DNA of 64,000 nucleotides from a virus (Duplodnaviria > Caudoviricetes): positions 64,001-128,000 of IMG/VR virus record IMGVR_UViG_3300033067_001757. One strand, written 5' to 3'. Shown here piece after piece: positions 27,120-44,418 of this stretch. The position numbers and the translations under genes are program-made. The first letter of the stretch is position 1. Each line of letters starts with the position of its first letter. The notes under the pieces are model-generated. The model saw only the letters and a list, made by a program, of their open reading frames with translations, did no database searches and was not told the origin of the DNA.

Positions 27120-29366
27120 TTAATTAAAAGTCACTCCGCTACCGTTGATAGAGAAACTCAACAGTATAAACTCAATCGTTTTAGTCGGTGACAGGTAAAT
27201 GTTTACCACCAGTTGGTTACGATCTATCACGTCCGAAGTATTGTTTGAATCGTCGACCTGAACACGGTAAGCGTACAGACCTTGCTTCTGTTTTACATTC
27301 TCCATGAATGGATTCAGTATGTTTCTCAGCTTGATCTGTGTATTGTTGGTATTCTGTTCGAAAACGAACGCATTAGAAGCGTTTACAACGAATGATCTCA
27401 GCGCGATGAGTAAACGGCGTACATTGATACGGTTAAGCGCTGTATCAGCCACTTGCAATGTCTTCTGACCAAATATTGATACACCATTGTTATTGGATTT
27501 GATCAACGGATTGATACGGGCTTGGTAAAGAGTATCTCTATCAGCTTTGTACAATCTGTATTTGGTATCAATAGCTCCACCAAGACCACCACGACCTATG
27601 CCTGCAGGTGCAAACCAAGGTTCGGCCACTGCATCATTGTATGCATATGCCTGTGGAACGATAACTGAAGGTGGAATAAAGATTGATTTATTACTTCCAA
27701 TGTCTTTAACGAGTACCCACGGATGATATGTTGCACTATAATTAGAATCAAGACCAGCAGCAGTAGCCACAGCGGTAGCGATTGTCTCATTAGGCCCGGT
27801 TAAATCTCTGATATAAACAGCATCGGTACGATTTTCACACATTGTTTCTGCAAGAGCAGTTACAGCAGAGTGATATTGTTCAATTATACCTGGTAAAGTC
27901 AGCAACCCGAATGAATATGCTTCCGGATTAGATAATATATTGATTGCTTTTTGATATGCTGCGGTTCCACCTGTTGTACTTGTCGATAAATCGAATCCAA
28001 ATACGTTAGTACCATTAGCCAGTATCTTTTCACCAATCTTTTTGATCACCGCGAAGTTTGTACCATCTGTACCACCCTGGAACGGTATAGTAAATTTGTT
28101 CTCATTCGTTGTTTTGGTGAAAGGAACGTTACTACCGGTACCCGCTTCGGTTGGGATTGGGTTAAGATAGTTTGTATTGTCGCTATTAGCGAAATTGAAA
28201 CCTGAATATGTTGTTGAGCTCGTTGTACTGAATACAAATGAAGCACTTGGTAGTGTGTATCCTGAAAAACCAGCAATAGGTTCATATATAGCTTCGAAAC
28301 CAACCGGAATAAGGTTAGGAGTCACGGAACCAGCTTCTACTCCACCGTCTATTTCTACACGAACGTATTTAGAGATGTTTGGATAGTAACCGTGATCAAG
28401 AACTCTTAACAGAGTCTCATCATAGTCGCTATATTTGTCACCGATTTTCTTACCGATGTAATTAGCAGCATCCGGATCAAGACTCACACCTGAATATTGT
28501 TCAATTACAGAAGGAGTTCGATCTGTATCGTTCCATGCTCTTACGAGAATATCGAATGTTGAGTAAATACTTGAGTCAGTATTCTTTGAAATATTTGCAA
28601 TGGATATCTTAATATCCTTATTTGTCTTAAACCCATGTGAACGGTGTACAAATCTGAATAATCTTACACCGCTATCGGATAATATCCACGGAGTTTTAGC
28701 AGCATCGTAACCTTCAGCGTATGAACTGGTGAACGTTATAGCTGAACCATTGAATATCAATGATCCGCTGGCAGAAGCTGCCGGTGTAACGGATCCTGTG
28801 AAGTAATTTGCAAAATGTATGTAAGGATATGCGCTTGAAGTAGCATAATTCTCATCAGTACCAATCATTTTCAACAAATAGTTGTTATCTGTCGGTGACA
28901 ATGACGCTGAAATAATCCTTGTAGTAATCTGACTACCACTTAATGTGAGTACGAAGTTATTGAAAGCACTTGCTGATGGTATAGATGAACTATTCAGTGC
29001 AGCGGTTGCAGCATTGTCGTTCTTTGAAGGGAATAAAACAGATATAATCTTAGAACCGCTTACAATTGCTGCTACTTTACGGGTAGTATTGAATACAAAC
29101 CCACCGTTACCCAATACTCTGGTAACTTTTGCAGTGCTGCCAGCTTGTAAATAATTATAAACAGCCTGTGGAACATAAGTTTCACCGGTATTTGTACCAA
29201 ACTTAGACACGAAATCGGCATAAGATGTCACATCCGTAGGAACGTATGCTGCACCTTTTTCAGTTGGGCCAACGATAGCCAAACCTGTAGCGACCTGACC
29301 TGGTGGTATATATGATTGGTCAATTTCTGATGAATAGACACCCGGGCTTAAGATTTGTTCTGTCAT
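27120..29366 (-). CDS. Tail sheath protein (T4 gp18-like)
   Basis: SPGVYSSEID, WFAPAG..RG, INP, FGQKTLQ..TALNRINVRRLL and FEQN. Confidence 0.93.
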   Translation of the reverse strand: MTEQILSPGVYSSEIDQSYIPPGQVATGLAIVGPTEKGAAYVPTDVTSYADFVSKFGTNTGETYVPQAVYNYLQAGSTAKVTRVLGNGGFVFNTTRKVAAIVSGSKIISVLFPSKNDNAATAALNSSSIPSASAFNNFVLTLSGSQITTRIISASLSPTDNNYLLKMIGTDENYATSSAYPYIHFANYFTGSVTPAASASGSLIFNGSAITFTSSYAEGYDAAKTPWILSDSGVRLFRFVHRSHGFKTNKDIKISIANISKNTDSSIYSTFDILVRAWNDTDRTPSVIEQYSGVSLDPDAANYIGKKIGDKYSDYDETLLRVLDHGYYPNISKYVRVEIDGGVEAGSVTPNLIPVGFEAIYEPIAGFSGYTLPSASFVFSTTSSTTYSGFNFANSDNTNYLNPIPTEAGTGSNVPFTKTTNENKFTIPFQGGTDGTNFAVIKKIGEKILANGTNVFGFDLSTSTTGGTAAYQKAINILSNPEAYSFGLLTLPGIIEQYHSAVTALAETMCENRTDAVYIRDLTGPNETIATAVATAAGLDSNYSATYHPWVLVKDIGSNKSIFIPPSVIVPQAYAYNDAVAEPWFAPAGIGRGGLGGAIDTKYRLYKADRDTLYQARINPLIKSNNNGVSIFGQKTLQVADTALNRINVRRLLIALRSFVVNASNAFVFEQNTNNTQIKLRNILNPFMENVKQKQGLYAYRVQVDDSNNTSDVIDRNQLVVNIYLSPTKTIEFILLSFSINGSGVTFN

Positions 29367-29460
29367 TTGATTATTAAAAAATTATGAGGAAAAGTGTATT
29401 TAACTATAAATAAATATCATGTGGTATGTGTAGAAAAATATCGTTATTGATAGCTTACGA

Positions 29461-31302
29461 TTAAAAAAATGCTGCCCAGGATGATCCATTATGAAAATAT
29501 GGCTTAGCTGTACCCGAACTTCCAGATACCGCAATCATCCCTAATCGTCCTGTTGGTAATGGATTTGAAGGTTTCAATAATAAGAAACTTGCTATTTCGG
29601 CAGAACCACTGATACTTAAACTTCCACTTATAAAAGATGATCCTGATATACTAAAACTGGCTGATTGAATAGCAGATGATTGATTTCTGATGGTAACAGA
29701 AGGATTATCTGACACAAGAGTAGAAACAGTTGACGAACCTATATAAAATTTATAGGAGCTCCCGGCTATCGGTTTAAAATTACTTCCACCGAGTTTAAAA
29801 TTTACAGAATCAACAAGAGTAGTATTTGCGGTGTTGAAATTAGCGATTATTTCCTGGCCACCGATACCGTTTAAAAATCCTGTAAAATTTGTAGCAGATG
29901 TATCATTAAAAGATATCACATTAGAACCGCTGACATCTTGTGTTGTTGCACCGTCAATTTTAGATGCTATTGAGTTCACAAATGGAATACCGACAGGCTT
30001 AAACTGCAACGATGATAACACAGCATAATGATCATCATCAGCATGGAATCTCAAACCAGGTGAAGAAGTATTTAATCTGGTAATTAAACTACCGCTATGA
30101 TCAAAAGAACTATTAGAAAATACTATATTTGTCAACGGTTGGAACAAAACATCCTCAGCAAATTCTGCAATTACTTTTCTATAATTATGAGTAGGTACAT
30201 CATCACCATAATCTCCGAATATCACTCTGGGTCTATATCTCAGATTATTATTATTTGAAGGGGCCATATTCTCAAGAAATGACCAGCTAACTCCACCGTC
30301 TGTTTGAATGCTGGAAGTATGAACAGGGCGAGTCGCACCGGTAGTTCCTGTGGTAGTAGCTCTGTAATATGAATACTCATTTACAATGATTTCACCGGTA
30401 GTAGTTGGACGCCCCGAATACCAATAACATAGATCTGCCCCACTCATACTATAAAATAATCCACCGTTATGATCAACAGGTACATTAAAATTCTGAGGTT
30501 GTAGATTGGCAATAGTCATTGCCTTATAAGTATTGTTCAGGAACGTGAACTCTATAGGTTGCCACGCTCCGGCAAAGTTTCCTTGATTTTTTGAATTTAT
30601 ACGATATACACCGGTACCGTTGTAACCACCATCATTCGCATAAAAACCACCGTCTCTATAATCTAATTGTCCTTCAGCGATCGTACTCTCAATATCATCC
30701 ATCCCAATTTTTAATGCTGAATATTGACCACCTGGATAAGGAGTGTTTGGATATTTACCTTTAGGCATGATATACAACGCCGCGTTCTTTGCATTCTTAA
30801 ATCCTCTCATTGTAATATGAGAATCACCTAAACCTGATGGTAGTTCTATTGTTGTGGATGTACCATAAGAAAAACTACCACTATTACCATCAAATATAAT
30901 CACATCATCAAGTTTATTATCGGCTATACTTTCTCTGTCATACATAACTCCTGAAGGAATATATATGGACTTCTTACCGTTGTCAAGTACTGTACTGAGT
31001 ATATTTGTATTCTGTAGAGAAGTTTTTCCGATACCAGCCCCCGAAAGTCTTAGATCATAAAATACTGCTTCGGTAGCATAAGTAGCTGAACCTGATACTG
31101 ATCCTGTAATTCCTCCGGCAACATTCAAATTCCTCTTGATATATACCTGATCAGTTCCTTGTACACTTCCTGTACCGATTGTCAATGATCCTGATACTAA
31201 AAGATCAACACTGGAACTATGAGTAAAAGCATTTATCAATTGAGAAACGTCTGAAGCTAAAACAACGTTACCAGTAACTATATTGGATTTATTTAAAGGC
31301 AT
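29461..31302 (-). CDS. Tail fibre / tailspike-like protein
   Basis: Virion-type N-terminus, SGS-rich segments and a YRATTTGTTG..P.H.....DGGV.W module. Confidence 0.6.
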   Translation of the reverse strand: MPLNKSNIVTGNVVLASDVSQLINAFTHSSSVDLLVSGSLTIGTGSVQGTDQVYIKRNLNVAGGITGSVSGSATYATEAVFYDLRLSGAGIGKTSLQNTNILSTVLDNGKKSIYIPSGVMYDRESIADNKLDDVIIFDGNSGSFSYGTSTTIELPSGLGDSHITMRGFKNAKNAALYIMPKGKYPNTPYPGGQYSALKIGMDDIESTIAEGQLDYRDGGFYANDGGYNGTGVYRINSKNQGNFAGAWQPIEFTFLNNTYKAMTIANLQPQNFNVPVDHNGGLFYSMSGADLCYWYSGRPTTTGEIIVNEYSYYRATTTGTTGATRPVHTSSIQTDGGVSWSFLENMAPSNNNNLRYRPRVIFGDYGDDVPTHNYRKVIAEFAEDVLFQPLTNIVFSNSSFDHSGSLITRLNTSSPGLRFHADDDHYAVLSSLQFKPVGIPFVNSIASKIDGATTQDVSGSNVISFNDTSATNFTGFLNGIGGQEIIANFNTANTTLVDSVNFKLGGSNFKPIAGSSYKFYIGSSTVSTLVSDNPSVTIRNQSSAIQSASFSISGSSFISGSLSISGSAEIASFLLLKPSNPLPTGRLGMIAVSGSSGTAKPYFHNGSSWAAFF

Positions 31303-31326
31303 TTATTGAGTATTTGTATATAAATA

Positions 31327-32292
31327 TCATGGAAGAACAATAGGAGTCGATGTTGGGTAAGTGATAGTACCATAAAATGCTACCGCATTTGTGCTTGCTC
31401 CGGATATAAGAATCACATATCCGTTATCAGCCGAATTTACAGCTATTGCCACCTTTGAGTTATTTGCTACGGGATTAGTAACATTTGATGTAAAACCACC
31501 TGCTCCATAAAACAATACTTCATTGGCGGTACCAAAACCTGCTGGCTCATAAGGTACAGGACTACCGGATGGTAATGGTATTGACGCAAGTGTTACACCG
31601 ATTCCTGGTCCCGAATATCTTAAATTAAAAACCAAAGATGACATATTACCAACTCTTGTCCACTGAAAAGTATTATTCGTACTACCGCTGGGAGCAGCCG
31701 TGGCAGTATATGCAATTGTTCCGCTGTAAGCAGATGATGATACTTCAGAGAAAACTAATCCGGCAATCGAGGCACTGACTGATCTGAGACTGGAGCTTGT
31801 TGATAATATTCGAGTATCAAGTGATGAACTTGCTATGTAATAAGATGATGTGAAAATATTATAGCTGGAACTCAACCAAAACAAAGAAGAAGAGTCGTTG
31901 GATATTCTGGAATTAAATGAGGCCGAATCAGTTAAATATGATGATGTAAGCAAATATTTCGATTCGCTTTGGTAAACATTATTGATACGTAGATCAAATG
32001 AAGCAGAATCCGTCTTATAACTACCGGTTGATGTATTAAAGTTTATTATCTGAACGAGACTCGACGTATTAAAATATGATGCAGTAAGAGCATAGCTTGC
32101 TGATAATGCGTATGACGCTGACTGAGCATAAGAACTACTTAATGAACTGGTATTATTTATACCAGTAAGTCCCGAACCATCCCCGTAATAAGTCATGGCC
32201 CTAACGACAGAAGCCGAAACAAATGTTTCAGCTTTTACCGATTTATAATATGCGTCAGCATCCCTTCTGTTTAATCCTGTGAATCCGGACAT
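31327..32292 (-). CDS. Tail fibre protein with SASYA / DSASF repeats
   Basis: YYGDGSGLTGI, repeated SASYA and DSASFxxRI, and a C-terminal WTRVGN..LP head domain. Confidence 0.65.
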   Translation of the reverse strand: MSGFTGLNRRDADAYYKSVKAETFVSASVVRAMTYYGDGSGLTGINNTSSLSSSYAQSASYALSASYALTASYFNTSSLVQIINFNTSTGSYKTDSASFDLRINNVYQSESKYLLTSSYLTDSASFNSRISNDSSSLFWLSSSYNIFTSSYYIASSSLDTRILSTSSSLRSVSASIAGLVFSEVSSSAYSGTIAYTATAAPSGSTNNTFQWTRVGNMSSLVFNLRYSGPGIGVTLASIPLPSGSPVPYEPAGFGTANEVLFYGAGGFTSNVTNPVANNSKVAIAVNSADNGYVILISGASTNAVAFYGTITYPTSTPIVLP

Positions 32293-32298
32293 CTGATA

Positions 32299-34146
32299 TT
32301 AGTTTGTTTCCAATATTACCACTTTCAATGTACTGTTTATAGTGAATGATGTTCCGGTTACTTTGATATCCTTGATAACAAATTTCTTTGTGTTACCACC
32401 GGTTATCGTAGTGTTTCCGATAGTGATAGTACCCGATTCATCATAATACGTAACAGTAACCGTTGTAAACGGATTCTCGGCTACGAACATTGCGTTCTTG
32501 AAAGTCTTGGCCCATTGACCATAACTGTCTGTTCTATTCCCAACTCTCCAGTATGATTGTTGAGCATCTGGATTAACCAGGTGTAATCTTCTTTCATATG
32601 GCCCTGCAAGCAAATCAACTCCGTAATCGTCTTTATTAAGACTATCGGGTATGTTGAGCGCACCCTGTGGTGCCATGAAAGCTTCTATTGCTTTCTGCCG
32701 GGCCGGGTTGATATTCTTCGCTAATAACTGAGATTTAAGAAATTGTCCATTAGCATTATTAGGTAAAAGCTTTATCTGTGCATTGTAATTGACCAACGTT
32801 ACAGGGTTTACTACCACTCCATATTTTGCGACAGGAAACCTTATAGTATCAGCAACATCTATGGCATCATGTATATAGGAGATTCCACCGGTGCCGACAG
32901 TATATTTATTGAATAATCTCATTGAGATAATGTTTCCATCATTGATGCTGGTGCAAAAAATATCTATACCGAGACCCATTGATTTCATAGGCAACGCAGC
33001 ATTTGTTCGCTGATCGTATGAAGAGTAACGTTGCATCATGGAGCCATCAGTCTCAGTACGAGACCAGGGTTTTTTGATTGTAGCAGTCACTTTACTACCG
33101 TCATAGTCTATTGGCGTGTGACCACCATTACCCTCTTTGATCCCGTCGTTTGGATAATTCTTCATTACATAATCCAGGTCTGAATAATCATTCCCCACAT
33201 TGAAAATGATCGGCCATGGGGAAATACTCTTTATCAACGCCCACAATTTATATCTAAAAGTTTTCCACTGATCGTCTGAAATATTATATTTTGGATCAAG
33301 CGGATCAGCTTTATATGGTTTAATATCACCCGTTGATCCCTCAGCCATATTCCAATACACAACAATATCACCATAGCCAGCATCAATTATATGCTGCTTT
33401 ATTTTCCTGTAAGCAGTATCCATCAACTTCATATAGATTGGATTCATATAGTCTGGATATAATGTCTCCTGGAACGCAGAATTAGTACCGGTAGGTTTTT
33501 TGGTATTTACTTTTGCTATGTTATATGGTGCCAGATAAAAGAAATCAGGTACACTCGGGCCTGTGAATATTTGTATACCAGCTTTTATACCACCTGTTTT
33601 ACAAGCAGCAAGTTCCTCATCGAGTGATGTCCAGTTCCACATTTCAGGTGTAATCCATATTTCAGATAAGTCCGTTGAAATGTTTGCACCTTTCAGATCG
33701 GGAAAAAGAGTCTGTACATTCTTTAGTGTTGTACGTCCATAGTTAAAGTATCCTACTGATGTTGGTTGAGAGATTATTACTTTTGGTATGATAGAATCGC
33801 ACCAACCTTTAGTGATATCATAGTGTGATGAAAACGATGTGTCTATACTAAAAAGAATATAAACAGGAGTATAAACCGTATCAAATTTTATATACCACTG
33901 ATATTTTCCGATTCGCGGATTTATCTCTGCTCTCGGTCTTTCTGTAAGCTTTCCATTTATTAATAATGGTTTCTGAACAGTATCAAAATTGTATTTGTAT
34001 GACGTATCGGGAACCGTTATCTGAACTGTGCATGGTACTTTAACTGTGTCGGATTGTGATATAGGAATTATGTTCCCTTTTGTGGTAGTTTGAGCAAAAG
34101 TTACTGTGCTGAATATAAGCATCAGTATGAAAAATATATTTTTCAT
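32299..34146 (-). CDS. Secreted glycoside-hydrolase-like (TIM-barrel) protein with Sec signal peptide
   Basis: MKNIFFILMLIFSTVTFA|Q signal; WNWTSLD...G...P, YPDY and AEGSTGD; paralog of 60611..62497. Confidence 0.6.
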   Translation of the reverse strand: MKNIFFILMLIFSTVTFAQTTTKGNIIPISQSDTVKVPCTVQITVPDTSYKYNFDTVQKPLLINGKLTERPRAEINPRIGKYQWYIKFDTVYTPVYILFSIDTSFSSHYDITKGWCDSIIPKVIISQPTSVGYFNYGRTTLKNVQTLFPDLKGANISTDLSEIWITPEMWNWTSLDEELAACKTGGIKAGIQIFTGPSVPDFFYLAPYNIAKVNTKKPTGTNSAFQETLYPDYMNPIYMKLMDTAYRKIKQHIIDAGYGDIVVYWNMAEGSTGDIKPYKADPLDPKYNISDDQWKTFRYKLWALIKSISPWPIIFNVGNDYSDLDYVMKNYPNDGIKEGNGGHTPIDYDGSKVTATIKKPWSRTETDGSMMQRYSSYDQRTNAALPMKSMGLGIDIFCTSINDGNIISMRLFNKYTVGTGGISYIHDAIDVADTIRFPVAKYGVVVNPVTLVNYNAQIKLLPNNANGQFLKSQLLAKNINPARQKAIEAFMAPQGALNIPDSLNKDDYGVDLLAGPYERRLHLVNPDAQQSYWRVGNRTDSYGQWAKTFKNAMFVAENPFTTVTVTYYDESGTITIGNTTITGGNTKKFVIKDIKVTGTSFTINSTLKVVILETN

Positions 34147-34168
34147 ATTATAAATTCTAATTTTATAT

Positions 34169-35722
34169 TTATAAACTTGTTATTGTTTCCCACACAGCTC
34201 CGGTATAGATACATAACTTATGTAATGTTAAATCGTACACAATTAGTCCCTCGGCTGGAGAGGTAATTGCATTTTTTTGCGTAGTTGTCATCCGTGGAAA
34301 CAGAAATCCTTGGGTAGTACTTGTAACATCAACGATTGATGTGGCTGCAGGTGTTGGTGTACCAAAACCTACTCGACCATCCGCTTTAAATGTTACTCTA
34401 TCTAATTCTGTTGCTAATGTTGTTCCTGTAGAACCGGTATTTGCTCCTCTTATCACAACATCTCCTGTACTTCCGGTACCTGTACCAAGACCACCTACCA
34501 GATATAAGTTACTTCCAGAAATATCTGTACCACTTCCGATTACCGCCCTAATTGTTCCTGGTATTGTTGTTGCCAACGCATTACCATAAGCGGTGGGTAA
34601 GTTGTTATTTATAACCGTTAAACCATTTGTAGTCGCTGAAATGTTTGTAAAAAAAGTAACGTTCGGATAATTTCTCCCATATATCATACCTCCACCTCCA
34701 TTCATTCCAACTGATATGGAAGCGGCAACTAAACCAGGAAATCCAGTACCATTGTTAGAAGCTATAGTTATTGTTCCACCATTTCCGGTTATAACAGCGG
34801 TAGGTGCCGATCCTAAACCGGCTGCTGTAACTTTAAATCCAGAAATACCTGCAACTTGTGCATCAATCAAATTACCAGTAAATCCACTAGCCGCATTTAC
34901 ACCAAAACCTGATCCAGACGGATTCCATCCTGTTGATGTTGTACCCGCTGGTTCTATTAGAAATAATGGCTTTGTAGTAGTAGATGAACCACTTGAATAC
35001 CATGATCCTGAGAATACTGCTACAGGAGTACTAACTCTACCGTTCCCAGTCGATATCAATGTTCCATCAAATCGCGATGAACCAGACACAAGTAATGCAT
35101 AACTTGAACTCACACTACCAGATGGAACACCATCAATATAAACAGTCGCACATAAAGATGCTGTACCAGCCGTTTCTACTATGGTAAATGGCTTAAACGC
35201 TGCTGATGCAACTATAGGACATTGACCCGGTGTAGTGATTGTAATTGATGAAGTGGCCACCATAAATAATGCCCCGGCGGAACCACCGCCTAAAGTCACA
35301 GTCCGGCTTCCTATACTCATATTGAAAGCTGTAGCATTTGTGCTTCCACACATTTGATATCCTAAAACTGCGGTTGATGCAAAACCTGTATTAAATGGGT
35401 GTGTTACAGTACCGTAAGTAAACGTACCCGCTGAAGTAATTGTTAAATTAGCAGCAACTGTTACCAACTGATTGAAGTTAAATCCACCACCGATAGTTAA
35501 TGTTGATGAAACTCCTGTAAGAGTTATTCCAATACCGTTAGACACAGTCAATCTCCCGGTCGAATCAACAGTAAACTGTGTAGGGCTATTAGGTTTATTC
35601 GGATTGAATATTCGCAATTGCTCAGTGAGACCAGTAAGCGTTACCCTCTGATTAAATGTCTTTCGCCCCTGAACTAGCTCGTATCCTGATGGAACACCAT
35701 TAAATAATTCACTATGTGTCAT
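34169..35722 (-). CDS. Tail fibre protein
   Basis: G/T/S-rich beta-repeats, GRVGFGT.TP and TTQGFLFPRMTTTQKNAI.SPAEGLIVYD module. Confidence 0.7.
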   Translation of the reverse strand: MTHSELFNGVPSGYELVQGRKTFNQRVTLTGLTEQLRIFNPNKPNSPTQFTVDSTGRLTVSNGIGITLTGVSSTLTIGGGFNFNQLVTVAANLTITSAGTFTYGTVTHPFNTGFASTAVLGYQMCGSTNATAFNMSIGSRTVTLGGGSAGALFMVATSSITITTPGQCPIVASAAFKPFTIVETAGTASLCATVYIDGVPSGSVSSSYALLVSGSSRFDGTLISTGNGRVSTPVAVFSGSWYSSGSSTTTKPLFLIEPAGTTSTGWNPSGSGFGVNAASGFTGNLIDAQVAGISGFKVTAAGLGSAPTAVITGNGGTITIASNNGTGFPGLVAASISVGMNGGGGMIYGRNYPNVTFFTNISATTNGLTVINNNLPTAYGNALATTIPGTIRAVIGSGTDISGSNLYLVGGLGTGTGSTGDVVIRGANTGSTGTTLATELDRVTFKADGRVGFGTPTPAATSIVDVTSTTQGFLFPRMTTTQKNAITSPAEGLIVYDLTLHKLCIYTGAVWETITSL

Positions 35723-36195
35723 TAAAAATCTCCTGCTTTTGTAACAACACTCATTCTATCTTGTACACCAGCGAATATAGATTGAGTAACCTTTATTTTA
35801 TAACCAGCATTTACTATCAAACCACCATTATTACCAATTGATACTACTGTACCGGCGGTATTCGTATAAGTTCCATTGACAAAATCAAAAAATCCATATG
35901 CACCCGCTACAGTATTAGAAGCTGCCACACTTGTGATAACACCTTCCGCAATTAAACCTATATTAGCATCCGATGCATCTGTTACCCATATCCTGGCAAC
36001 CATGGTACCCGATAAAGCCGCAGCTGTAGCCTGAGCTGAGGTCCATCTGATCCAATCTACACGGGTACCATTAGTACCTGCGGTAAGTAATGTAACTAAT
36101 GTTCCAGAACCATCTCTGGCTGTATTAGCTGCTGCAATAACTGCGGCTGGACAATTGGGTACTAATGGAAATATTGGTGAAGTATTCGCGGCCAT
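35722..36195 (-). CDS. Tail fibre-associated structural protein
   Basis: MAANTSPIF...ANTARDGSGT...AGTNGTRVD; lies in the fibre cluster. Confidence 0.55.
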   Translation of the reverse strand: MAANTSPIFPLVPNCPAAVIAAANTARDGSGTLVTLLTAGTNGTRVDWIRWTSAQATAAALSGTMVARIWVTDASDANIGLIAEGVITSVAASNTVAGAYGFFDFVNGTYTNTAGTVVSIGNNGGLIVNAGYKIKVTQSIFAGVQDRMSVVTKAGDF

Positions 36196-36425: not shown

Positions 36426-36430
36426 TATGA

Positions 36431-38467
36431 TTAAAATAAATTGTAATAACTATATAATTTGTTTCCAGAAGAATTATTATCTACATATGTCTTTACAGCA
36501 TTCTGAGAAGGATACAATGTATTGGAAGTACCAAGAGTTGTAGTGGTACTCTTATTACTAACATCTTCCTTCAACGCAAGTGAGGCTGATACCGAACCCG
36601 ATAATAAATATATACTCGATGAAGTATTTGTAATCCTAAGATCGAATGAAGTACTTGCCGCATAATAAGACGAAGTGAACGTATTATAACTCGAACTCAG
36701 AGAAAATAATGACGAAGAATCATTTGATATTCTGGAATTGAATGAAGCAGAATCGTTATTAATACTTGAACTAAGTGTATTAAAAGAACTCGTGAGTGTA
36801 TAATAGGGAGCATATGAAGCGGTGTATGCATAGCTGGAACTAAACGCCCATGAAGCACTTACTGAAGCACTGGATGATACTGCATACGAAGCACTCAAAG
36901 CTTGTGATGCATATGACGAGGTACCGAGTAAACTTCCAGTAAATGATTGCGCTGTTACGCTACCTGTGACATACAATGATCCGGAAACATATACAGATCC
37001 GGTGATCACCTCATCTCCAAAAAATCTATTACTACCTGTAGTAACAAACGATGCGGTATCTATAGATTGACCGGTGCTTCCTGTTGGAATTGTTATGCTG
37101 CCACTATTATCAGCAAATATTCCATTAACCGATGCTACTAATACCGCTGTGGCGTCTGGTAAATAAATAGTATGATTAGATGTTGTAACTTCATTAGTCA
37201 AGAATGTTTTTATGCTACCACTACGAACATAAATACCTTTAGTGGATATTCTACCATTAGCATCGAGACCAAAAACATAACCGTCCGGATCATTAGTCTT
37301 TAAAAACGCATCTGCTTCTATGCTCGCAGTAGTAGTGTTACCAATGTTAGTAACGCTTTGTAAATCTTGCAGAGAACCGGTTGCAGATGATGTAAAATTT
37401 CTTATACGGTCATCGAAAGATGCTGAATCAATATTATATGATGCAGTTGTTACAAATGAAGATGTATCAAATGAAACGCTGCCACCCGAACCTGTAACAA
37501 CCCATGATAATACACCGTTAGTATTTTGTATAGTTGTGGTACCACTTCCGGAAGCATTTGGCCAAACATATGACAATCCTGCTATCGTAAACGTCCTAGT
37601 ACCTGGTACATATTTAAATTGTGCGGAGCCTTTAGATAATTCTTTAGGATTTGCAGTATATAAAGGAATCTGATTTACCCTTTGGATACCGCTGACTTTC
37701 TGTGTTATATAATAGTTAGAACCTGAAATAGATTCATATACAATATCGTCCGTACCCATTACCGGTGTTTCGGTTTGCTGTCCGAATAATAATCCTTTAT
37801 TAATTGAACCTGTTACAGGAATAACAATCTGAGGATCAAACTCAGCAGTTTCATTGGCATCACTCGTTCTCGTTAAAATAACAGGTGCTGTGGAAGAACC
37901 TGTTTGTGATAGTGAATACGGTCCGTTCTGCAAAGAAGATGTTTGATTCTTTACAAGTACACGATCATTTAGTGACAATACAGCACCGTCGACAGACGGG
38001 AAAACAAAATTTAAAACACTCGTCAGCGTGGCTCCGATACCTGAAGAACCATTATTGTATATGTAACCACTCAGCGACGATGTTGTTGCTGCTACAACCG
38101 TAATAGGTGTAATACCATACGATGAAGTATTGATATTATTGATCCTATCATTAAACGATGCAGAATCAGAATAATATGAAGCAGTTAGAAGATAATTAGA
38201 TTCACTGGTAAATACATTACGTATCTGTAACAGAAACGATGATGAATCAATATAGTACGACGACGTTAAAAGATACTTAGATTCGCTTTGGAATACATTA
38301 TTGATACGAACATCAAAGGAAGAACTATCCGTTCTGTATGAGGCTGTAAACGCATTAAATGATGAGGTAGAGGTATAACCAATCACATTACCCTGGAAAC
38401 TTCCTGAGAAACTCCCGGTAAACGACCCTGATAACGGTTGCTCTAACTGTGATGAATTGATTAACAT
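36431..38467 (-). CDS. Tail fibre protein with DSASF / ASYA repeats
   Basis: DG..L..NDRVLVKNQT...QNG.Y...LTR..DA fibre module, LQSVTNIGNTT and KEDVSNKS...YPSQNAVKTYVD. Confidence 0.72.
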   Translation of the reverse strand: MLINSSQLEQPLSGSFTGSFSGSFQGNVIGYTSTSSFNAFTASYRTDSSSFDVRINNVFQSESKYLLTSSYYIDSSSFLLQIRNVFTSESNYLLTASYYSDSASFNDRINNINTSSYGITPITVVAATTSSLSGYIYNNGSSGIGATLTSVLNFVFPSVDGAVLSLNDRVLVKNQTSSLQNGPYSLSQTGSSTAPVILTRTSDANETAEFDPQIVIPVTGSINKGLLFGQQTETPVMGTDDIVYESISGSNYYITQKVSGIQRVNQIPLYTANPKELSKGSAQFKYVPGTRTFTIAGLSYVWPNASGSGTTTIQNTNGVLSWVVTGSGGSVSFDTSSFVTTASYNIDSASFDDRIRNFTSSATGSLQDLQSVTNIGNTTTASIEADAFLKTNDPDGYVFGLDANGRISTKGIYVRSGSIKTFLTNEVTTSNHTIYLPDATAVLVASVNGIFADNSGSITIPTGSTGQSIDTASFVTTGSNRFFGDEVITGSVYVSGSLYVTGSVTAQSFTGSLLGTSSYASQALSASYAVSSSASVSASWAFSSSYAYTASYAPYYTLTSSFNTLSSSINNDSASFNSRISNDSSSLFSLSSSYNTFTSSYYAASTSFDLRITNTSSSIYLLSGSVSASLALKEDVSNKSTTTTLGTSNTLYPSQNAVKTYVDNNSSGNKLYSYYNLF

Positions 38468-38468
38468 A

Positions 38469-39692
38469 TTATGCGAACTTGCCTACGGCGTATACTTCCC
38501 AGGTTGATATAAATGAAAATCCTACTTCTGCAGGATTGATAACAAGAGTGCAGGTGTTGTCACCGTTATCAACGAAACTTACAATACCATTTGGCTCCAG
38601 TAATTGTCCATTAACAAAGAATTCAAACTTACTAACATCGGTAGGAGGTAAACTCGGAGTCGGTGATGGTAAGAATGATGCTGGGAATATAGCAGTTGTC
38701 GTAGTAACAGTAGTTGCCAATACCATTTTATTAGTATTAAGATATGTAAGAATATTAGGATCAATAGTACCACTACCACCACCTGCCGATCTCGTTGGTA
38801 TGGGATATGAAACAACACTACTTGCTTTACCGATATTTGCAGTAGTGATATCAATACCACCTACCACCTCTGTTTTGAATACGACCTGAGCTTTTGAAAA
38901 GAATCTTTTATAGTCCGTGGTTAAGAATTTATTTATTGAGTCTGGAATAACATATCCATTCAGGACGATATTAAACTGAGACATAAACTTTCTATCATCA
39001 CCTTGCTCTATTTGTTGTGTAATTGGCATTGCATCTATACGGGCCTGGTAAGTGAATTTATTAGGTTGGCCCCAGTAGGAATCTGAACGATAAAAAATAT
39101 CTTCGATGATGCGTAAGATATCTTCCATCATATTGGTATAAATCACACATGTGAATGTAAGCTTATGGTAATCCGGTACAATGAACGATCCGTATTCTTC
39201 TACCGGTACCCGATTGGTGAGTACTGAGAAAGTGTCATAAAAATTTTTATTTGAATAACGCTTTTTATATATCTGATAATTATGAACTTTATTACCGTCA
39301 AGTTTATTACCCAGTTCCCGGTTCTTTTCAATGTTATCAAGCTTCACCGATATTACCGGGAATAATACCTGACCTTCTTTATCTCTGAAAGCACCATCTC
39401 GTTGAGCGGATTTCCAACGCTCAGGTGCCGCATAGATAACAGGGATATTAATCCTTGTACCTTCTTCTATAACCGAACATTTTATTACCTCTTTGAAGTA
39501 ATACATAATCCCATCAACAATATCCTGGAATCCGTTAGAAATATCCTTTATGTCTTCTCCTCGTAACGACACATCATTACCCCTCTTAGATACATCAACC
39601 GGTGGTTTACCTAGTTCTGGTATATAAGGATGGATATTGTTATTGGTTATCTCAGCTTGAGATTTAGGGATGTTCTTTATCGTTTCGGGCAT
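38469..39692 (-). CDS. Tail completion / sheath stabilizer (T4 gp15-like)
   Basis: IPVIYAAPERW, PVIS and VPDY..LTF; follows the neck genes. Confidence 0.65.
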   Translation of the reverse strand: MPETIKNIPKSQAEITNNNIHPYIPELGKPPVDVSKRGNDVSLRGEDIKDISNGFQDIVDGIMYYFKEVIKCSVIEEGTRINIPVIYAAPERWKSAQRDGAFRDKEGQVLFPVISVKLDNIEKNRELGNKLDGNKVHNYQIYKKRYSNKNFYDTFSVLTNRVPVEEYGSFIVPDYHKLTFTCVIYTNMMEDILRIIEDIFYRSDSYWGQPNKFTYQARIDAMPITQQIEQGDDRKFMSQFNIVLNGYVIPDSINKFLTTDYKRFFSKAQVVFKTEVVGGIDITTANIGKASSVVSYPIPTRSAGGGSGTIDPNILTYLNTNKMVLATTVTTTTAIFPASFLPSPTPSLPPTDVSKFEFFVNGQLLEPNGIVSFVDNGDNTCTLVINPAEVGFSFISTWEVYAVGKFA

Positions 39693-40180
39693 TATCTGCT
39701 CTTAATTATATTTAATTTGTTGTGTTTAGTTAAGTGTGACTTGCATATTATTGACCATGACTCACCATATAATTGACTATCTTCTTCCAATGAATAGTCT
39801 GGATTTTTACCCATTATTCGTTGATTAACTATAGTATTATCAACTTCAAAATAATTTTCTTCCCACAGGATTATATCCCCCTTCTCTGGTACCAGATTAA
39901 GTTCAATGAGATCTGCTTGTAAGAAACGAAAATCTACCTGTTGTGTTGTAGTTAAACCAGTTTCAATGTATGGTGAATCTGGATCTTCCGGTACAATTGA
40001 ACATACGAGAAGAATAGGCTGATGATAAATTTTATTCTTTGATTCACCGAATACATTTACGTTTGTTTCTCTTAGAGACAGTTTATAATAAATAACTTCT
40101 TGAGAGATTATTTTACGCATCACCTGGCGGTTATGATGACGAAAAAAACTTTTTGCTTTAGGTCCTGTATATAGTGGCAT
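39692..40180 (-). CDS. Head closure / neck protein (T4 gp14-like)
   Basis: VIYYK...N.FGES and PEKGDII.W...YFEV; lies between gp13-like and gp15-like genes. Confidence 0.7.
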   Translation of the reverse strand: MPLYTGPKAKSFFRHHNRQVMRKIISQEVIYYKLSLRETNVNVFGESKNKIYHQPILLVCSIVPEDPDSPYIETGLTTTQQVDFRFLQADLIELNLVPEKGDIILWEENYFEVDNTIVNQRIMGKNPDYSLEEDSQLYGESWSIICKSHLTKHNKLNIIKSR

Positions 40181-40186
40181 ATTAAA

Positions 40187-41356
40187 TTATCCAATTATTA
40201 TAGGCATCGGAAAATTTACCAAAGTATCTTTCATATTAGACGCCTCCTGAGCCTTCATTTCCATTTGTTTTTGTCTACTCGTACTGTCTAATGTTTCACG
40301 CAAACTTGTAATCAGTTTTTCCTGATCGTTAGATGCCTGAGTTAAAAGATCAGTACCGTTGACATTTATTTCCGTTCCGGGAAATGGTGTACCTGAATAT
40401 GTATTTCTAATGTTACCGAGTATTTCTTTAGCAACGGCCAAACCATAATCGAATATCCATTTACGCCCAGGTGAATTAATCTGTGAATAATTAATTTCAT
40501 CATAAGGAACATTACTAATGTTAGTAACGAGACTTGTACCAGAATTTCTCACCAGACTACTTCTTTCCGATTGTTTAATATAAGTAAACCAAAGTTTCTT
40601 ATCGTCATATATCGGCACCGGAAATATCCTGAGCTTATTGTTTATTAGTTCAAATGTAAATGCGGACTTGCGTATCTGATCATTAAATTCAATAGCTTGC
40701 ACACGAAGTACATCAGCATACGCCGGCATCAACATAAAATTAATAGCCGGTGACAAGTTACCAAATCCGAACGATTGCATCAAATCCTGCAGTCCTATAC
40801 CAGTACCAGCATAAGGATCACCAAATCTATTTACAGCAGGCGTACCTTCATAGAAGATTCTTTTTATCTCAATAGTGTCACCCGGTTGTAAAGATGCTGA
40901 TTGACTGGCCCAAAAATCAAGATCGTAAAACTGTTGACCAGGTATCATCTGCAATGAACCTGAATAGTAATTTATATTACCTCCGGAACCGACCTCTGAA
41001 CCATAATCTTTCGCAATACGAAGTAAATTTGCAAAGTTGGGCTGGATTAATGTGGTATTCAGATTGCTGCCGGTTGAACTACCTTCCATAGAAAGATAAT
41101 TCTCACGAATCTTATACTCATATAATTCTTTACCATATACAGTAACAGCATCTTCTAAAGCTGCATAGAAATTGATATCCTGCAACTCCACTTCCATGAT
41201 AGGATAACCTAATCTTCTTGCTCCGAATTTAGCAAACTTCTGACCAGCAATCTGAAATTGAGGATCATCATCATAGTACCCAAAAGGAGTATTCCCACTT
41301 ACTGGTAAGAGGGATACATCTTCATTATAATAAAGTATTTCTGTTATCGCTGCCAT
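40187..41356 (-). CDS. Neck / head-tail adaptor protein (T4 gp13-like)
   Basis: RRLGYPIMEVEL, WIFDY.LA.AKEILG.IR..Y and NG..L. Confidence 0.8.
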   Translation of the reverse strand: MAAITEILYYNEDVSLLPVSGNTPFGYYDDDPQFQIAGQKFAKFGARRLGYPIMEVELQDINFYAALEDAVTVYGKELYEYKIRENYLSMEGSSTGSNLNTTLIQPNFANLLRIAKDYGSEVGSGGNINYYSGSLQMIPGQQFYDLDFWASQSASLQPGDTIEIKRIFYEGTPAVNRFGDPYAGTGIGLQDLMQSFGFGNLSPAINFMLMPAYADVLRVQAIEFNDQIRKSAFTFELINNKLRIFPVPIYDDKKLWFTYIKQSERSSLVRNSGTSLVTNISNVPYDEINYSQINSPGRKWIFDYGLAVAKEILGNIRNTYSGTPFPGTEINVNGTDLLTQASNDQEKLITSLRETLDSTSRQKQMEMKAQEASNMKDTLVNFPMPIIIG

Positions 41357-41372
41357 TGTATATAAATATCAG

Positions 41373-42068
41373 TTAGGCTCTCAATTCAGAAAATACCTTA
41401 AGGATGTCTTCTACTATTGGATGACGATGATTAGTTTGGAGTGATACTGTTGCGAATCCGGGAATATCCTTCATATGCTTGTAAAGTATGTCAAAACCAG
41501 AATCGGCCTTTTTCTTCAAATCTATCTGGGCTGAGTCACCACAGATAACAATCTTCGATCCGATGCATAAACGACCCAGAATAAGCTCTAATTGATTCTG
41601 TGTAGCATTTTGCGCCTCATCGACTATTACGAATACTTTTGAAAAGTTCCATCCACGAAGAAAACCGATAGGAATAACTTCGATGAGACCATCTGAAATA
41701 AGCTTATCGATATTTTGCTTGGTATCAAGACGATACATATTTGCATATACAGGGTCGCTAAATGGTGCCATTTTATCATCTTTACTACCTGGTAGAAATC
41801 CGATGTCTTCTCCTGCTGTGATTGCGGGTCTTGCGATGATAACTTTTTCAATACCGTCTGAATGTTTATGTAAACAATCGAGTGCTACCTGCGCGGCAAG
41901 TAAGGATTTACCGGAGCCGGCTTTACCTTTTATAACTGTGACAGTATTGTTGAGAATTATGTCTTTGGCTACTTTTTGTTCTTCGTTAAGAGAGAGATTA
42001 AATTTACGTGGAGTCTTTGGTATTTTCTTTTCTTTATAAACCTGGTCACTATGTGGTTTAGAACTCAT
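41373..42068 (-). CDS. phoH: PhoH-like ATPase (start revised to ATG 42068)
   Basis: GKAGSGKS, RPA...E.IGFLPG, FLRG..F, IVDEAQN, GDSAQID and RHPIV. Confidence 0.93.
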   Translation of the reverse strand: MSSKPHSDQVYKEKKIPKTPRKFNLSLNEEQKVAKDIILNNTVTVIKGKAGSGKSLLAAQVALDCLHKHSDGIEKVIIARPAITAGEDIGFLPGSKDDKMAPFSDPVYANMYRLDTKQNIDKLISDGLIEVIPIGFLRGWNFSKVFVIVDEAQNATQNQLELILGRLCIGSKIVICGDSAQIDLKKKADSGFDILYKHMKDIPGFATVSLQTNHRHPIVEDILKVFSELRA

Positions 42069-42105
42069 GAAATATTGGTTTGATATAAATATCAATCACG
42101 AGACA

Positions 42106-42684
42106 TCAAGCTAAAACTTTTCTATATCGTCCATCGGAACCTTTCTCAATATCCTTTCTTTTACGGAGATTATCACACCTTTCCTGATACTTATCTCGAC
42201 CTTCTTCACCGTAACGTTCAATAAACCAATCCAAAGAAAAGCGACCCTTGGCCTTTTGTTTTTGTAATTCTATAGATTCCGGTCTATGTTTCTTCCCATA
42301 CATTGCATTATTTTCACCACTGCTTAATATACTTTGATTCTTAACGAACTCATAATACTTATCGGTATCGCGTAATCCATCCCAAATATCTCCACCATCT
42401 TCTGTTTGATACATACTATTATATCCTTCTAACACTGAATTATATTCTAATATATATTTCAATTCTTTCGTTATTGCTTCTTCAATTGTATCAGCTTCAT
42501 CAATTATTTCTTTGATCATATTGTCCCAGCCATATTTTCGAATAGCATTATATAAATGCCATTTTACATCTTTGGTAGATCGATATTTATGTGATTTCAT
42601 TCTGTCGTAGAAATCGTTTGTTCTACCGATGTATACCTTACCGTTGGGAGATGTTATCTTATAAATTACAAAATTTGGATTCAT
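42106..42684 (-). mobile_element. Free-standing GIY-YIG homing endonuclease
   Basis: VIYKITSPNGKVYIGRT, LYNAIRKYGW, GYN and a NUMOD3-like N.MYGKKH..ES. Confidence 0.85.
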
Positions 42685-42728
42685 AGAATTCGGATTTTTA
42701 TTTTAATTGAGTTTTTAGGAAGAGAGAT

Positions 42729-42760
42729 AAAAAAGAGCAAGACGTAATGCTTGCTCTTAA
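42729..42760 (-). terminator. Intrinsic terminator after the major capsid gene
   Basis: Minus strand AAGAGCAAG-CATTACGT-CTTGCTCTT followed by TTTT. Confidence 0.8.
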
Positions 42761-42780
42761 TTTTATAAGGAAAATTAGGG

Positions 42781-44418
42781 TTATAGTTTGTCCAAATCGG
42801 CAACGTAAACAGCCCCAAAAAATTCCGCGCGGGTTACCTTCTTAGCGTAACGAGTTGACAACCCTTTACGTGGAGTGAAAGTTTCAGGATCAAACAATGT
42901 CGGTGTCATCACCAGCGGTACATACGTTAAGTATGAAGCTCCACATTCAAGGAACGATCCACCTTTGTAACCCATTAATATGGTGTTTGAAGTCATATAA
43001 GGGTTGATTATAACGTCCCATTTGTTTGCGATGTTACCTGCTTTGTAAGCGCCCATTGCGTACTTATCGCTCTTTCCATCAGTGCTTGCTGCATATCCAG
43101 AGATAGACTCAAGGATTACAGAAACCTCCGGTGAAATCATCACTTTATTCGCCTGACCACGTACAGTCTTCTTTAAGATCTGACGAGATACTGTCTGCAT
43201 CTTGGTACCAAGTGTTTTGAACCACTCACCCTGGGTGTTGTAGTAACCACCTGCACCTGCTGCGGCCTGAGACCATGTAGCTGTATTCTTGTTATAGAAT
43301 ACGTTAGATACACATGACCAGATTTCATAAGTATTAACAGACGCTTCGATCATATCAAGAATCTCAAGGTCAATCTCCATAGAGATGTATTCGCTTAACA
43401 CCGAAGTGATTTCAGCTTCTACATCAATACTTTGATAAGCGTTGATATCCTGCGCACCTTCTGCAGTCCATTTACCTTTTACTTTTCTGGTTTTAGCGGC
43501 CACAGCTTCTGAACGGAATTCCATGTTGAATTCTGGAATAGAGTTAGAACCAGTTAAACCTCTTGTAGCGGTATCTTCAAAATCACCACGAGCATTATCG
43601 GTAGGTTGTTTTGAGTAGTAAATAGTCGCTGAACCTGATCCAAGACCCAACTGACCAGCAGTACCTGAAACGATGAACGTTAAGGTATCGGTTGTTGTGT
43701 TATAAGAAGAGAATTCTGCGAACAAGTTAGATTCAGATACACCTGAGCCGGTAAGTACAAATGAACGCGCTCCTACAGTATCCATACCAGGTACAGCAGC
43801 GGCAGCGGCAGTAACACTTAACTTCCTTAAGAAACCAGCTTGTGCAGATGCACTGTAGTTACCATTGAAGTTGATGTCAGCAGCAGAAGCTGTTGTAGTA
43901 GTGAAAGATATTGACGAGGTATATTCGTTGATAGAGAATCCCCAACGGCCAGCGCCATATAAACCACCGAAAGCTGGTACGTTCTTAGTAGTGGTAGTAC
44001 CATAAACACTATCACTCGAGTTGAAACGTGAGTTACCACTTAAAGATGGTTGGTTAGTACCATACTTAAATTCAAGATAGAATACCATACCTGTTGGTAA
44101 TGGCATCGGCTGTAACGATACAAATTCTTTTGAAGGAATGTCAGCGAATACTTTACGCACCAACGGTAACGCAACGCCTGCCCATTGTTCACCAGAACCT
44201 ACTGTGAATGTACCACCGGTACCAGTCTGGGTCTGTTCAACGAACAATTGTTTTGCTTGATTCTCAAGCATGAGAACCATGTTCTCTTTAGCATATTTTT
44301 CCTGAAGGTCTTTACCTTTCAAAAGGCCGGTCTTTTCCCATTTGGGCATAAGCTCCTTAGCTCTTTTTAACTGATCCTGGAATGCTGATTCCGGATTATA
44401 TAATTTTTCTATACTCAT
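42781..44418 (-). CDS. Major capsid protein (T4 gp23-like)
   Basis: KW..TGLL, LENQ, LPLVRKVF, VSLQPM..PTG.VFYL, AKTRK.K..WT.E.AQD, EID.EI, YVPL and F.P..G..TRYA. Confidence 0.95.
   Translation of the reverse strand: MSIEKLYNPESAFQDQLKRAKELMPKWEKTGLLKGKDLQEKYAKENMVLMLENQAKQLFVEQTQTGTGGTFTVGSGEQWAGVALPLVRKVFADIPSKEFVSLQPMPLPTGMVFYLEFKYGTNQPSLSGNSRFNSSDSVYGTTTTKNVPAFGGLYGAGRWGFSINEYTSSISFTTTTASAADINFNGNYSASAQAGFLRKLSVTAAAAAVPGMDTVGARSFVLTGSGVSESNLFAEFSSYNTTTDTLTFIVSGTAGQLGLGSGSATIYYSKQPTDNARGDFEDTATRGLTGSNSIPEFNMEFRSEAVAAKTRKVKGKWTAEGAQDINAYQSIDVEAEITSVLSEYISMEIDLEILDMIEASVNTYEIWSCVSNVFYNKNTATWSQAAAGAGGYYNTQGEWFKTLGTKMQTVSRQILKKTVRGQANKVMISPEVSVILESISGYAASTDGKSDKYAMGAYKAGNIANKWDVIINPYMTSNTILMGYKGGSFLECGASYLTYVPLVMTPTLFDPETFTPRKGLSTRYAKKVTRAEFFGAVYVADLDKL

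Follow-up and report, generated by a model that had tools for sequence, protein, structure and literature searches.

A serine-ending tripeptide tag on the outer virion proteins of a T4-like phage clade and its candidate role in cytoplasmic O-glycosylation

The outward-facing virion proteins of a very large clade of T4-like phages carry a short sequence tag, the tripeptide [S/T]-[G/A]-S, which we describe here from a window of 64,000 nucleotides comprising bases 64001-128000 of the single 187,243-bp IMG/VR phage record IMGVR_UViG_3300033067_001757, rated complete. We regard it as robust that the tag is defined by sequence, under selection, specific to this lineage, and restricted to outer parts of the virion. 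We infer that the tag is modified, which enzymes modify it, and what the resulting coat does: judged from sequence, there is an even chance that [S/T]-[G/A]-S is the acceptor site for cytoplasmic O-glycosylation by soluble, phage-encoded glycosyltransferases (GTs).

The minus strand carries every long open reading frame (ORF) of the window, including all window genes discussed below, and coordinates refer to the window unless marked as those of the genome. The structural module of a T4-like myovirus lies in one block, with a gp23-like major capsid protein (MCP), gp18-like sheath, gp19-like tube, portal, prohead protease, and large terminase. The closest cultured relatives are Flavobacterium phage immuto (vB_FspM_immuto; MCP 47%, sheath 36%) and Microcystis phage Mel-JY01 (MCP 46%, sheath 39%), followed at a greater distance by the uncultured LR756508 and Rhodothermus phage RM378; the hosts of the clade include Bacteroidota, Cyanobacteria, and Rhodothermus. 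In the searched collection, this capsid and sheath are shared by more than 580 contigs.

The preliminary description of this DNA had proposed, from hand counts, that [S/T]-[G/A/S]-S is a sequon for glycosylation of the virion surface. We counted [ST][GAS]S in 60 translated window ORFs against 1000 composition-preserving shuffles and, as a local control, against shuffles inside 15-residue blocks, in which local Ser/Gly richness is kept; counts are given below as observed versus expected. The recount reproduced all of the earlier motif counts. The motif is 3-5 times over-represented in the outer proteins against both the global and the local shuffles, and the strongly enriched window proteins retain z-scores of 3.2-10.3 after local shuffling, which rules out Ser/Gly composition alone as the source of the excess. 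No excess is seen for the Thr-ending form [ST][GAS]T or for the permuted orders [GAS][ST]S, S[ST][GAS], and [GAS]S[ST]. Every synonymous choice of Ser, Thr, Gly, and Ala codons is used within the motif, indicating a protein-level feature and excluding a DNA-level word.

All tripeptides were ranked, with correction for composition, in four protein sets that are non-repetitive and unrelated to one another, namely the sheath outer domains of 79 orthologs, three virion-type glycosidases, and seven outer proteins each of this phage and Mel-JY01; such sets were chosen since tandem repeats in giant proteins dominated a pooled scan. SGS ranked first or nearly first in all four (4.8, 7.9, 8.9, and 8.7 times expectation), followed by TGS, SAS, and TAS, and SGT, NGS, DGS, SGN, and SGD stood at or below ~1 times expectation. 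Given this ranking, we define the tag as [S/T]-[G/A]-S, in which the last residue is strictly Ser. The originally proposed pattern was thus borne out for Gly or Ala at position 2, with SGS dominant, but has to be narrowed for SSS and TSS, which are weak outside fibre shafts and strong mainly in their repeats. The usual flanks are V, I, L, or F at position -1 and Y, L, or F at position +1. These hydrophobic and aromatic flanks favor a different explanation, which we consider unlikely: that the tag is an unmodified physico-chemical or structural adaptation of the surface, in which small hydroxylated turns replace charged residues so as to improve hydration, reduce stickiness, resist proteases, or ease packing in assemblies, the island of GT genes described below being unrelated to it. 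In keeping with this, the motifs often stand where homologs have Gly-containing polar turns (TGG, NGS, SGD, NGK). However, a preference for polar turns would neither demand Ser over Thr at position 3 nor bar Asn and Asp, whereas SGT, NGS, SGD, and SGN remain at or below ~1 times expectation and SGS reaches 5-9 times.

The distribution of the motif within the sheath (748 residues, 27120..29366; PHROG 23 and Pfam sheath domains) follows the architecture of the protein. Its 13 sites (versus 3.7, z 4.9, local z 4.4) all fall at residues 103-410, with none in the C-terminal core, which agrees with the earlier claim that they are confined to the N-terminal and central part. Across 80 sheath orthologs (35-59% identity), 694 sites were found versus 263 (2.6-fold; 1.3-fold for the Thr-ending control), restricted to residues 100-250 and 350-500. 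The turnover of sites is considerable, with 136 alignment columns used at least once, although three columns keep the motif in about two-thirds of the orthologs. Alignment with the T4 gp18 core covers only residues 6-86 and 535-747, and the AlphaFold2 model of the sheath (predicted local distance difference test score, pLDDT, 84) matches T4-type sheaths at Z 30-35, with minimal sheaths superimposing on only ~320 of its residues. Extra domains of contractile sheaths decorate the sheath exterior, and the motif-bearing extra domains presumably face outward here as well. Much shorter sheaths of 571-627 residues, missing part of the extra domains, occur in a sublineage of the clade (G018-G029; loci L282-L289) and are still enriched (e.g., 13 versus 2.3 in G019).

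In the MCP (gp23-like, 545 residues, 42781..44418; PHROG 138 and tblastn to T4-like MCPs), exactly the six sites originally cited were found, at residues 167-289. Taken alone they are insignificant (z 2.2, local z 1.4), but significance is reached when orthologs are pooled: 79 MCPs contain 444 sites versus 174.5 (2.5-fold), 90% of them within residues 160-280, and the central region is enriched 2.9-fold against its local composition, compared with 1.2-fold for the control. The same holds for the neck or head-tail adaptor-like protein (389 residues, 40187..41356; PHROG 211), in which the three sites reported earlier are present but not significant by themselves (3 versus 0.9, local z 1.9), whereas its pooled orthologs yield 27 versus 7.5 (P 3e-8). 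The capsid and neck claims hold, therefore, at the level of the clade. When this phage was left out and orthologs were pooled for each window protein, the enrichment amounted to 2.7-fold for the sheath (P 1e-11), 3.6-fold for the neck, 1.9-fold for the MCP, and 3.3-4.0-fold for outer baseplate and fibre proteins, and values at or below 1 were obtained for the tube, portal, protease, terminase, gp15-like protein, and inner baseplate proteins. Ser at position 3 is moderately more conserved than nearby Ser in the sheath (0.44 versus 0.30) and the MCP (0.52 versus 0.25); p ranges over 0.01-0.15 with the choice of reference sequence. In four alignment columns of the MCP, as in the three of the sheath, the motif is retained in 55-75% of orthologs, which speaks for an unmodified structural role.

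The contrast proteins behave largely as first described. No sites are present in the internal tail tube (26598..27086; PHROG 4542; orthologs 2 versus 1.1) or in the stretch 45699..51826, which encodes the prohead protease (45699-46364), an unannotated 722-residue protein, and the portal (49946-51826), with PHROG 207 and 213 assigned; pooled protease and portal orthologs contain 1 versus 3.1 and 0 versus 3.4 sites, respectively. The tape measure named in the preliminary description corresponds at best to two long unannotated ORFs that possibly encode it and contain 0 and 1 sites, and the terminase, too, has 0.

A natural experiment is provided by two paralogous hydrolases. The virion-type glycosidase (628 residues, 60611..62497), related to families GH42 and GH35 of clan GH-A, lacks a signal peptide, has a disordered, motif-rich N-terminal region of 70 residues, and contains 24 sites versus 5.0 (z 8.8). 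Its GH42-like paralog (32299..34146), encoded inside the fibre gene cluster and predicted to be exported by virtue of an N-terminal signal peptide, contains 0 versus 1.0. Both the 24-to-0 difference and the paralogy (24% identity, E 2e-30) were confirmed. The AlphaFold2 model of the virion-type enzyme (pLDDT 87) consists of a (beta/alpha)8 TIM barrel followed by a beta-sandwich and matches GH35/GH42 beta-galactosidases with a Foldseek probability of 1.0; the protein itself has no Pfam hit, whereas its homologs P0003 and P0004 hit Pfam GH42, and E321 is invariant in 65 members of the family. Bacterial homologs have a Pfam GH42 domain, a signal peptide, a type IX secretion system sorting domain, and 0-1 motif sites. 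In an exhaustive search of the GH42-like family, only 3 of the 144 members are enriched (24, 19, and 17 sites), and these three share a fibre-like N-terminal extension and the absence of a signal peptide, whereas the other 141 pooled contain 178 versus 204 (0.87-fold); the motif is thus not a property of the enzyme fold. The glycosidase had no match in a tblastn search against cultured phages, and a single-protein pattern search of viral contigs likewise returned none.

The two best phage orthologs of this enzyme (38% identity) have 9 sites in common, out of 24 and 19, and a bacterial TAT is replaced by TAS in both. Sites in the model fall to 50% in coil, 38% in helix, and 12% in strand, against a background of 39/37/24, and include helix N-caps, mid-helix positions, hairpin turns, and loops. 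The matching columns in 62 non-enriched family members are more hydrophilic (Kyte-Doolittle -0.7 to -1.05 versus -0.43) and less conserved. Because the sites occur across structural contexts at normally polar positions, the motif is defined by sequence, and a single beta-strand or turn element is excluded as its basis. The presence of sites in every class of secondary structure, mid-helix included, is also difficult to reconcile with small hydroxylated turns as the selected feature.

Five fibre or fibre-like proteins are enriched. The window's strongest enrichment belongs to a long fibre protein (678 residues, 19.8% Ser, 36431..38467; 50 versus 13.8, z and local z both 10.3), followed by the fibre protein at 62478..63368 (296 residues; 20 versus 5.0, z 7.2), which ends in a C-terminal intramolecular chaperone (Pfam Peptidase_S74, residues 214-262), a fibre-shaft protein at 31327..32292 (321 residues, 20.6% Ser; 21 versus 7.2, z 5.5), and two fibre-like outer proteins, one at 29461..31302 (613 residues; 15 versus 5.0, z 4.7) with weak PHROG hits only and the other, rich in Thr and Gly, at 34169..35722 (517 residues; 11 versus 4.5, z 3.2 globally and locally). 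The shafts at 31327-32292, 36431-38467, and 62478-63368 contain 6-residue S-A-S-Y-A-x and 7-residue [ST]-S-S-hydrophobic-x-x-hydrophobic repeats, and in the first of them the motif spacing peaks at 6 and 7 residues, corresponding to hexad and heptad repeats. Since these three proteins have modules in common, they are not independent cases, and such regular repeats would also be expected of an unmodified structural feature. The late fibre proteins make an unusual demand on Ser, Tyr, and Leu, with up to 20% Ser and SASY and SSSL repeats. Giant proteins of 3529 and 2731 residues are encoded by another genome, G007 (61819-72408 and 73437-81632; region of loci L190 and L191), the first of which has 22.7% Ser and 283 motif sites and contains long tandem repeats of the T-P-S-I-T and S-G-S-G-T types.

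Genome-wide, the enriched proteins fall into two blocks, running past the window to genome 128022-136518. The outer protein at 63385..64000, which continues past the window end (211 residues in the genome), is the first of this further block; it is motif-rich, with 5 versus 0.8 (z 4.6) in its window part and 6 versus 1.2 in the genome. Neighbors beyond the window end have 11 versus 2.3, 36 versus 8.6 (a 1777-residue protein), and 8 versus 2.2, and the orthologs are enriched 3.3-4.0-fold. A small outer protein of 95 residues (60324..60611; 2 versus 0.2, orthologs 24 versus 6.8) is similar to the C-terminus of a 345-residue protein just past the window. Apart from this small pair and the three fibre-shaft proteins, the enriched proteins are mutually unrelated, which implies at least 9 independent gains. 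Convergent gain in unrelated folds, as originally argued, is therefore upheld for at least 9 protein families, but repeat expansion, against which that argument had been directed, does hold for the three module-sharing fibre-shaft proteins; it fails for the sheath, MCP, neck, glycosidase, and 1777-residue protein.

The signal extends across the clade. Proteome-wide, the motif occurs 284 times versus 139 in this phage, 242 versus 153 in Mel-JY01, 230 versus 134 in immuto, 117 versus 67 in RM378, 335 versus 276 in LR756508, and 198 versus 146 in the cyanomyovirus DSL-LC02, as well as 205 versus 114 and 269 versus 126 in the complete IMG/VR genomes G018 and G019, respectively. The classical T4-like phage Aeh1 has no proteome-wide excess (120 versus 117) and no flagged protein. 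Because Aeh1 has the same folds, the tag is not a general property of fibres and sheaths, nor is this absence what an unmodified surface adaptation would predict.

The reverse trend appears in proteins that do not reach the virion surface. For a non-structural set defined by genome position and orthology rather than motif content, to which internal virion proteins were added, [ST][GA]S is rarer than expected (34 versus 54, P 0.002) and [ST][GA]T more frequent (69 versus 47, P 0.002), and the Ser share is 0.33 versus 0.53 (p 2e-5); Aeh1 is without such a skew. This mild avoidance is suggestive, though only suggestive, of a reader in the cytoplasm, and a shift from Ser to Thr at position 3 in non-virion proteins is not predicted if the tag is an unmodified surface. 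It is also unexplained by a further, very improbable alternative, in which unmodified hydroxyl arrays form a weak multivalent glycan-binding or ice-binding-like surface that holds the particle in host mucilage, capsule, or mucus. The concentration of the tag on fibres and outer domains, its presence on a virion-borne glycosidase, and hosts that include the mucilage-forming Microcystis and Flavobacterium would fit such a surface, but the sites do not form ordered ladders, being dispersed one by one over globular surfaces, and the strict Ser at position 3 has no place in it.

The expectation that a modifying enzyme would be encoded outside the window was borne out by a search of the phage genome for GTs, which placed seven GT-like genes, together with two for methyltransferases, between 30.4 and 48.5 kb of the genome and a further GT2 gene at 148 kb. 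In genome order, these encode a GT17-like protein (30395-31225), an FkbM methyltransferase (33015-33623), a second methyltransferase (33880-34467), a GT2-like protein (35463-36143), a Glyco_trans_1_2 protein (36712-37599), a GT1-like protein (38491-39420), a GT2 (39828-40481), a second GT4-type protein of 435 residues (44098-45405), a GT4 of 487 residues (47030-48493; Pfam Glycos_transf_1, 37 bits), and the distant GT2 (148292-149221). All ten are predicted to be soluble, with neither a signal peptide nor a transmembrane-like segment. The GT4 has the E-x7-E signature, with E321 and E329 invariant in six orthologs. For the 435-residue protein, whose gene lies between those of the GT4 and the GT2, there is no Pfam hit; its family has an invariant E299...E307 (E-x7-E) inside an EGYGRPxAE motif and the GT1 profile matches its ortholog in G001, which identifies the protein as a second GT4-type enzyme that is probably catalytic. 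A block comprising a PD-(D/E)XK nuclease, the GT4 pair, and the GT2 is syntenic in immuto, Mel-JY01, G001, G007, G018, and G019.

These genes allow the glycosylation reading to be stated as a mechanism. Selection has repeatedly written the tag onto exposed parts of the outer proteins, from the extra domains of the sheath and the insertion region of the capsid to the neck, the periphery of the baseplate, the fibres, and the fibre-attached glycosidase; the tandem GT4 pair (genome 47030-48493 and 44098-45405) and the adjacent GT2 (39828-40481) would be the best candidates for priming, extension and methylation of the glycan would fall to the other GTs and the two methyltransferases, one of FkbM type, at 30.4-39.4 kb, and the particle would leave the infected cell coated with sugar. 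A wider form of the proposal, to which we give somewhat less than an even chance, is a "glyco-code", in which the conserved GT4 pair with its GT2 and the extending GTs and methyltransferases reads one sequon across the whole very large aquatic T4-like clade of phages of Bacteroidota and cyanobacteria, the sequon being written on any surface protein, a recruited glycosidase included, and erased from internal ones.

Co-occurrence across genomes had been suggested as a check on this link, and the outcome is divided: both the GT4-GT4-GT2 core and motif enrichment are present in 5 of 5 complete clade genomes, but the association is not independent of descent and has an exception in the genome G003. 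In another, partial genome (G006; 82 kb, 39% complete), the sheath is unenriched (2 versus 2.2) and the nuclease gene has no adjoining GT block, in line with the link. Several points weigh against glycosylation of the tag by these enzymes. G003 (176 kb, ~92% complete) shows the strongest enrichment of all (517 versus 208) and yet neither a GT4 pair nor a GT2 is detectable in it; the search gave just a GT-B-like ORF of 12-14 bits at the contig edge. Among 50,697 cultured-phage records, the GT4 was found only in immuto, Mel-JY01, LR756508, and RM378 and the second GT4 only in immuto and Mel-JY01; since the GT4 is confined to the lineage that shares the capsid and sheath, its co-occurrence with the motif may reflect common descent. 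Sheath enrichment and the enrichment of neighboring proteins co-vary weakly over 39 loci (Spearman 0.33, p 0.04), and the avoidance in non-virion proteins is uneven among genomes (immuto 0.57, this phage 0.72, G018 0.80, G003 0.86, G019 0.90, and Mel-JY01 1.03). The GT4s score ~20 bits against known protein glycosyltransferases, as any GT4 would, phages can use soluble GT arrays for other purposes, and a literature search yielded no chemical evidence of virion modification for the clade.

The structural module is common to G003 and this phage, which otherwise have in common just a metallophosphoesterase, the thymidylate synthase homolog ThyA, and a 147-residue protein. The last of these (genome 153602-154045, minus strand; L005:16602-17045) is conserved to an unusual degree, with 69% identity to part of a 388-residue ORF of G003 and 59% in G001. 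At the start of the linear G003 contig (L165:126-4249), a RimK-like ATP-grasp ligase, a metallophosphoesterase, the marginal GT-B-like ORF, and a 475-residue protein with 20% Ser stand together, and these edge genes could be part of another protein-modification cassette.

A tagged genome in which no GT pair is detected suits not only an unmodified surface but also a second kind of reader, which we hold to be decidedly improbable: that the tag is indeed modified, but by a phage GT outside the core, by a host enzyme, or through phosphorylation, acylation, or phosphoglycosylation, and that the GT core acts on another target such as host envelope glycans, a small molecule, or DNA. It would account for the enrichment of RM378 in spite of its missing second GT4, for sugar-related genes inside the structural modules of relatives such as Mel-JY01, and for the position of the GT block among replication genes, adjoining the nuclease. 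However, no kinase or other transferase candidate was identified, the GT core is present in every complete clade genome, and the hosts, which span Bacteroidota, Cyanobacteria, and Rhodothermus, are so diverse that a shared host enzyme is unlikely.

DNA deserves separate consideration as a target of the GT core, as arrays of GTs in phages can add sugars to hydroxymethyl- or hydroxy-pyrimidines, bases produced by thymidylate-synthase homologs or by the joint action of a methyltransferase and a dioxygenase (PMC13326640; bioRxiv 10.1101/2023.12.21.572611). Like such hypermodification systems, this large phage genome has several soluble GT genes in a cluster, here near replication genes, but the route to an acceptor base was not found. 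With 299 bits, the 370-residue ThyA homolog clears the equivalog model for thymidylate synthase, and the equivalents of the canonical L143, D169, and N177 are kept in it and in the relatives' copies. No cytosine-C5 methyltransferase was detected in the genome by a search in which positive controls matched, whereas a search for TET/JBP dioxygenases gave no match but its positive controls were likewise silent. The ThyA and C5-methyltransferase results make DNA a less likely target, pointing away from a DNA acceptor, and DNA modification would in any case leave the protein motif unexplained.

If the phage GTs act on the tag, the closest analogue in logic appears to be the GtfA/GtfB system, which carries out cytoplasmic O-glycosylation of Ser in serine-rich-repeat adhesins of Gram-positive bacteria, with S-A-S-type acceptors; there, a GT4 of ~500 residues works beside a GT-B-type partner of ~440 residues, and further GTs extend the glycan. 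The phage similarly has a GT4 with the E-x7-E motif, an adjacent GT-B neighbor, and SAS-type candidate acceptors. Unlike the non-catalytic GtfB-type partner, however, the partner here keeps E-x7-E, and the candidate acceptors are single tripeptides on folded domains rather than the long disordered repeat regions of adhesins. The scores of the phage GT4 against structures from the GtfA/GtfB system (19.7 bits for 4pqg and 11.7 bits for 5e9t) do not exceed those against BshA, TreT, or chlorovirus B736L, so that a specific relationship with GtfA/GtfB, given also the catalytic-looking partner, is unsupported past the level of the GT4 family. Flagellins, in turn, are O-glycosylated on Ser/Thr in the cytoplasm by enzymes of the Maf, GmaR, and FgtA types without a strict sequon. 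The resemblance would lie in the decoration of exposed domains of a self-assembling extracellular structure before assembly, with buried parts spared, and the difference in the strictness of the candidate sequon here.

Among viruses, the mycobacteriophages Che8, Corndog, and Myrna have virions glycosylated by phage-encoded GTs (Freeman et al. 2023 as cited in PMC12619734 and PMC10877033), with the glycans reported at the C-termini of siphovirus capsid and tail-tube subunits. Both cases have phage-encoded GTs accompanied by methyltransferase genes, and here, too, the GTs would act on structural proteins inside the infected cell. In contrast, the tube of the present phage is free of sites, its capsid sites are central (167-289 of 545), and the tripeptide is spread over at least 9 families of outer proteins; the site-free tube and the central capsid sites indicate that this is not the mycobacteriophage system. 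Chloroviruses are described as decorating their major capsid protein at non-canonical sites with their own soluble GTs and methyltransferase activities (PMC5408694, PMC9614988). They, too, are large DNA viruses with soluble GTs of their own, and the chlorovirus GT4 B736L (PDB 3oy2) is among the weak structural-database matches of the phage GT4, but they infect eukaryotic algae, bear mostly N-linked glycans, and use other site motifs, which leaves a relation at the level of GT family similarity only. A literature search returned no published sequon of the [S/T]-[G/A]-S form and nothing relevant on glycosylated sheath or fibre proteins.

Some neighboring genes and features of the relatives are worth recording. 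A PhoH-like gene (41373-42095) sits between the neck and capsid genes, and Mel-JY01 has a PhoH-like gene at the same position. Between the portal and large terminase genes lies an HNH endonuclease gene (51826-52833), the product of which has three SAS sites; all three belong to a K-E-W-x-S-A-S-D module that is repeated, and they probably have nothing to do with the virion tag. In the structural module of Mel-JY01 (L014:3065-13162), a motif-rich "structural protein" (24 versus 7.6) is followed by a 1227-residue protein annotated as an FkbM methyltransferase and, farther along, by a 639-residue cytidylyltransferase-like protein; the Mel-JY01 genome also encodes a prolyl 4-hydroxylase (L016:46571-47170).

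Sugar coats made by phages have so far been documented for a few mycobacteriophages only, at protein C-termini. Should [S/T]-[G/A]-S prove to be a genuine sequon, glycosylated virions would be common among the environmentally abundant T4-like phages that infect Bacteroidota and cyanobacteria of fresh and marine waters, and the modified sites could be predicted from sequence. This would have consequences for how stable these phages are, how they adsorb and are recognized by hosts and grazers, and how cryo-electron microscopy maps are interpreted, and would offer a compact cytoplasmic O-glycosylation tag, together with its enzymes, for glyco-engineering. Two cultured relatives, immuto and Mel-JY01, show the same signal, which makes the question directly testable. 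Even without sugar, the tag marks the outward-facing proteins and domains of these virions and represents an unusually clean case of convergent motif gain.

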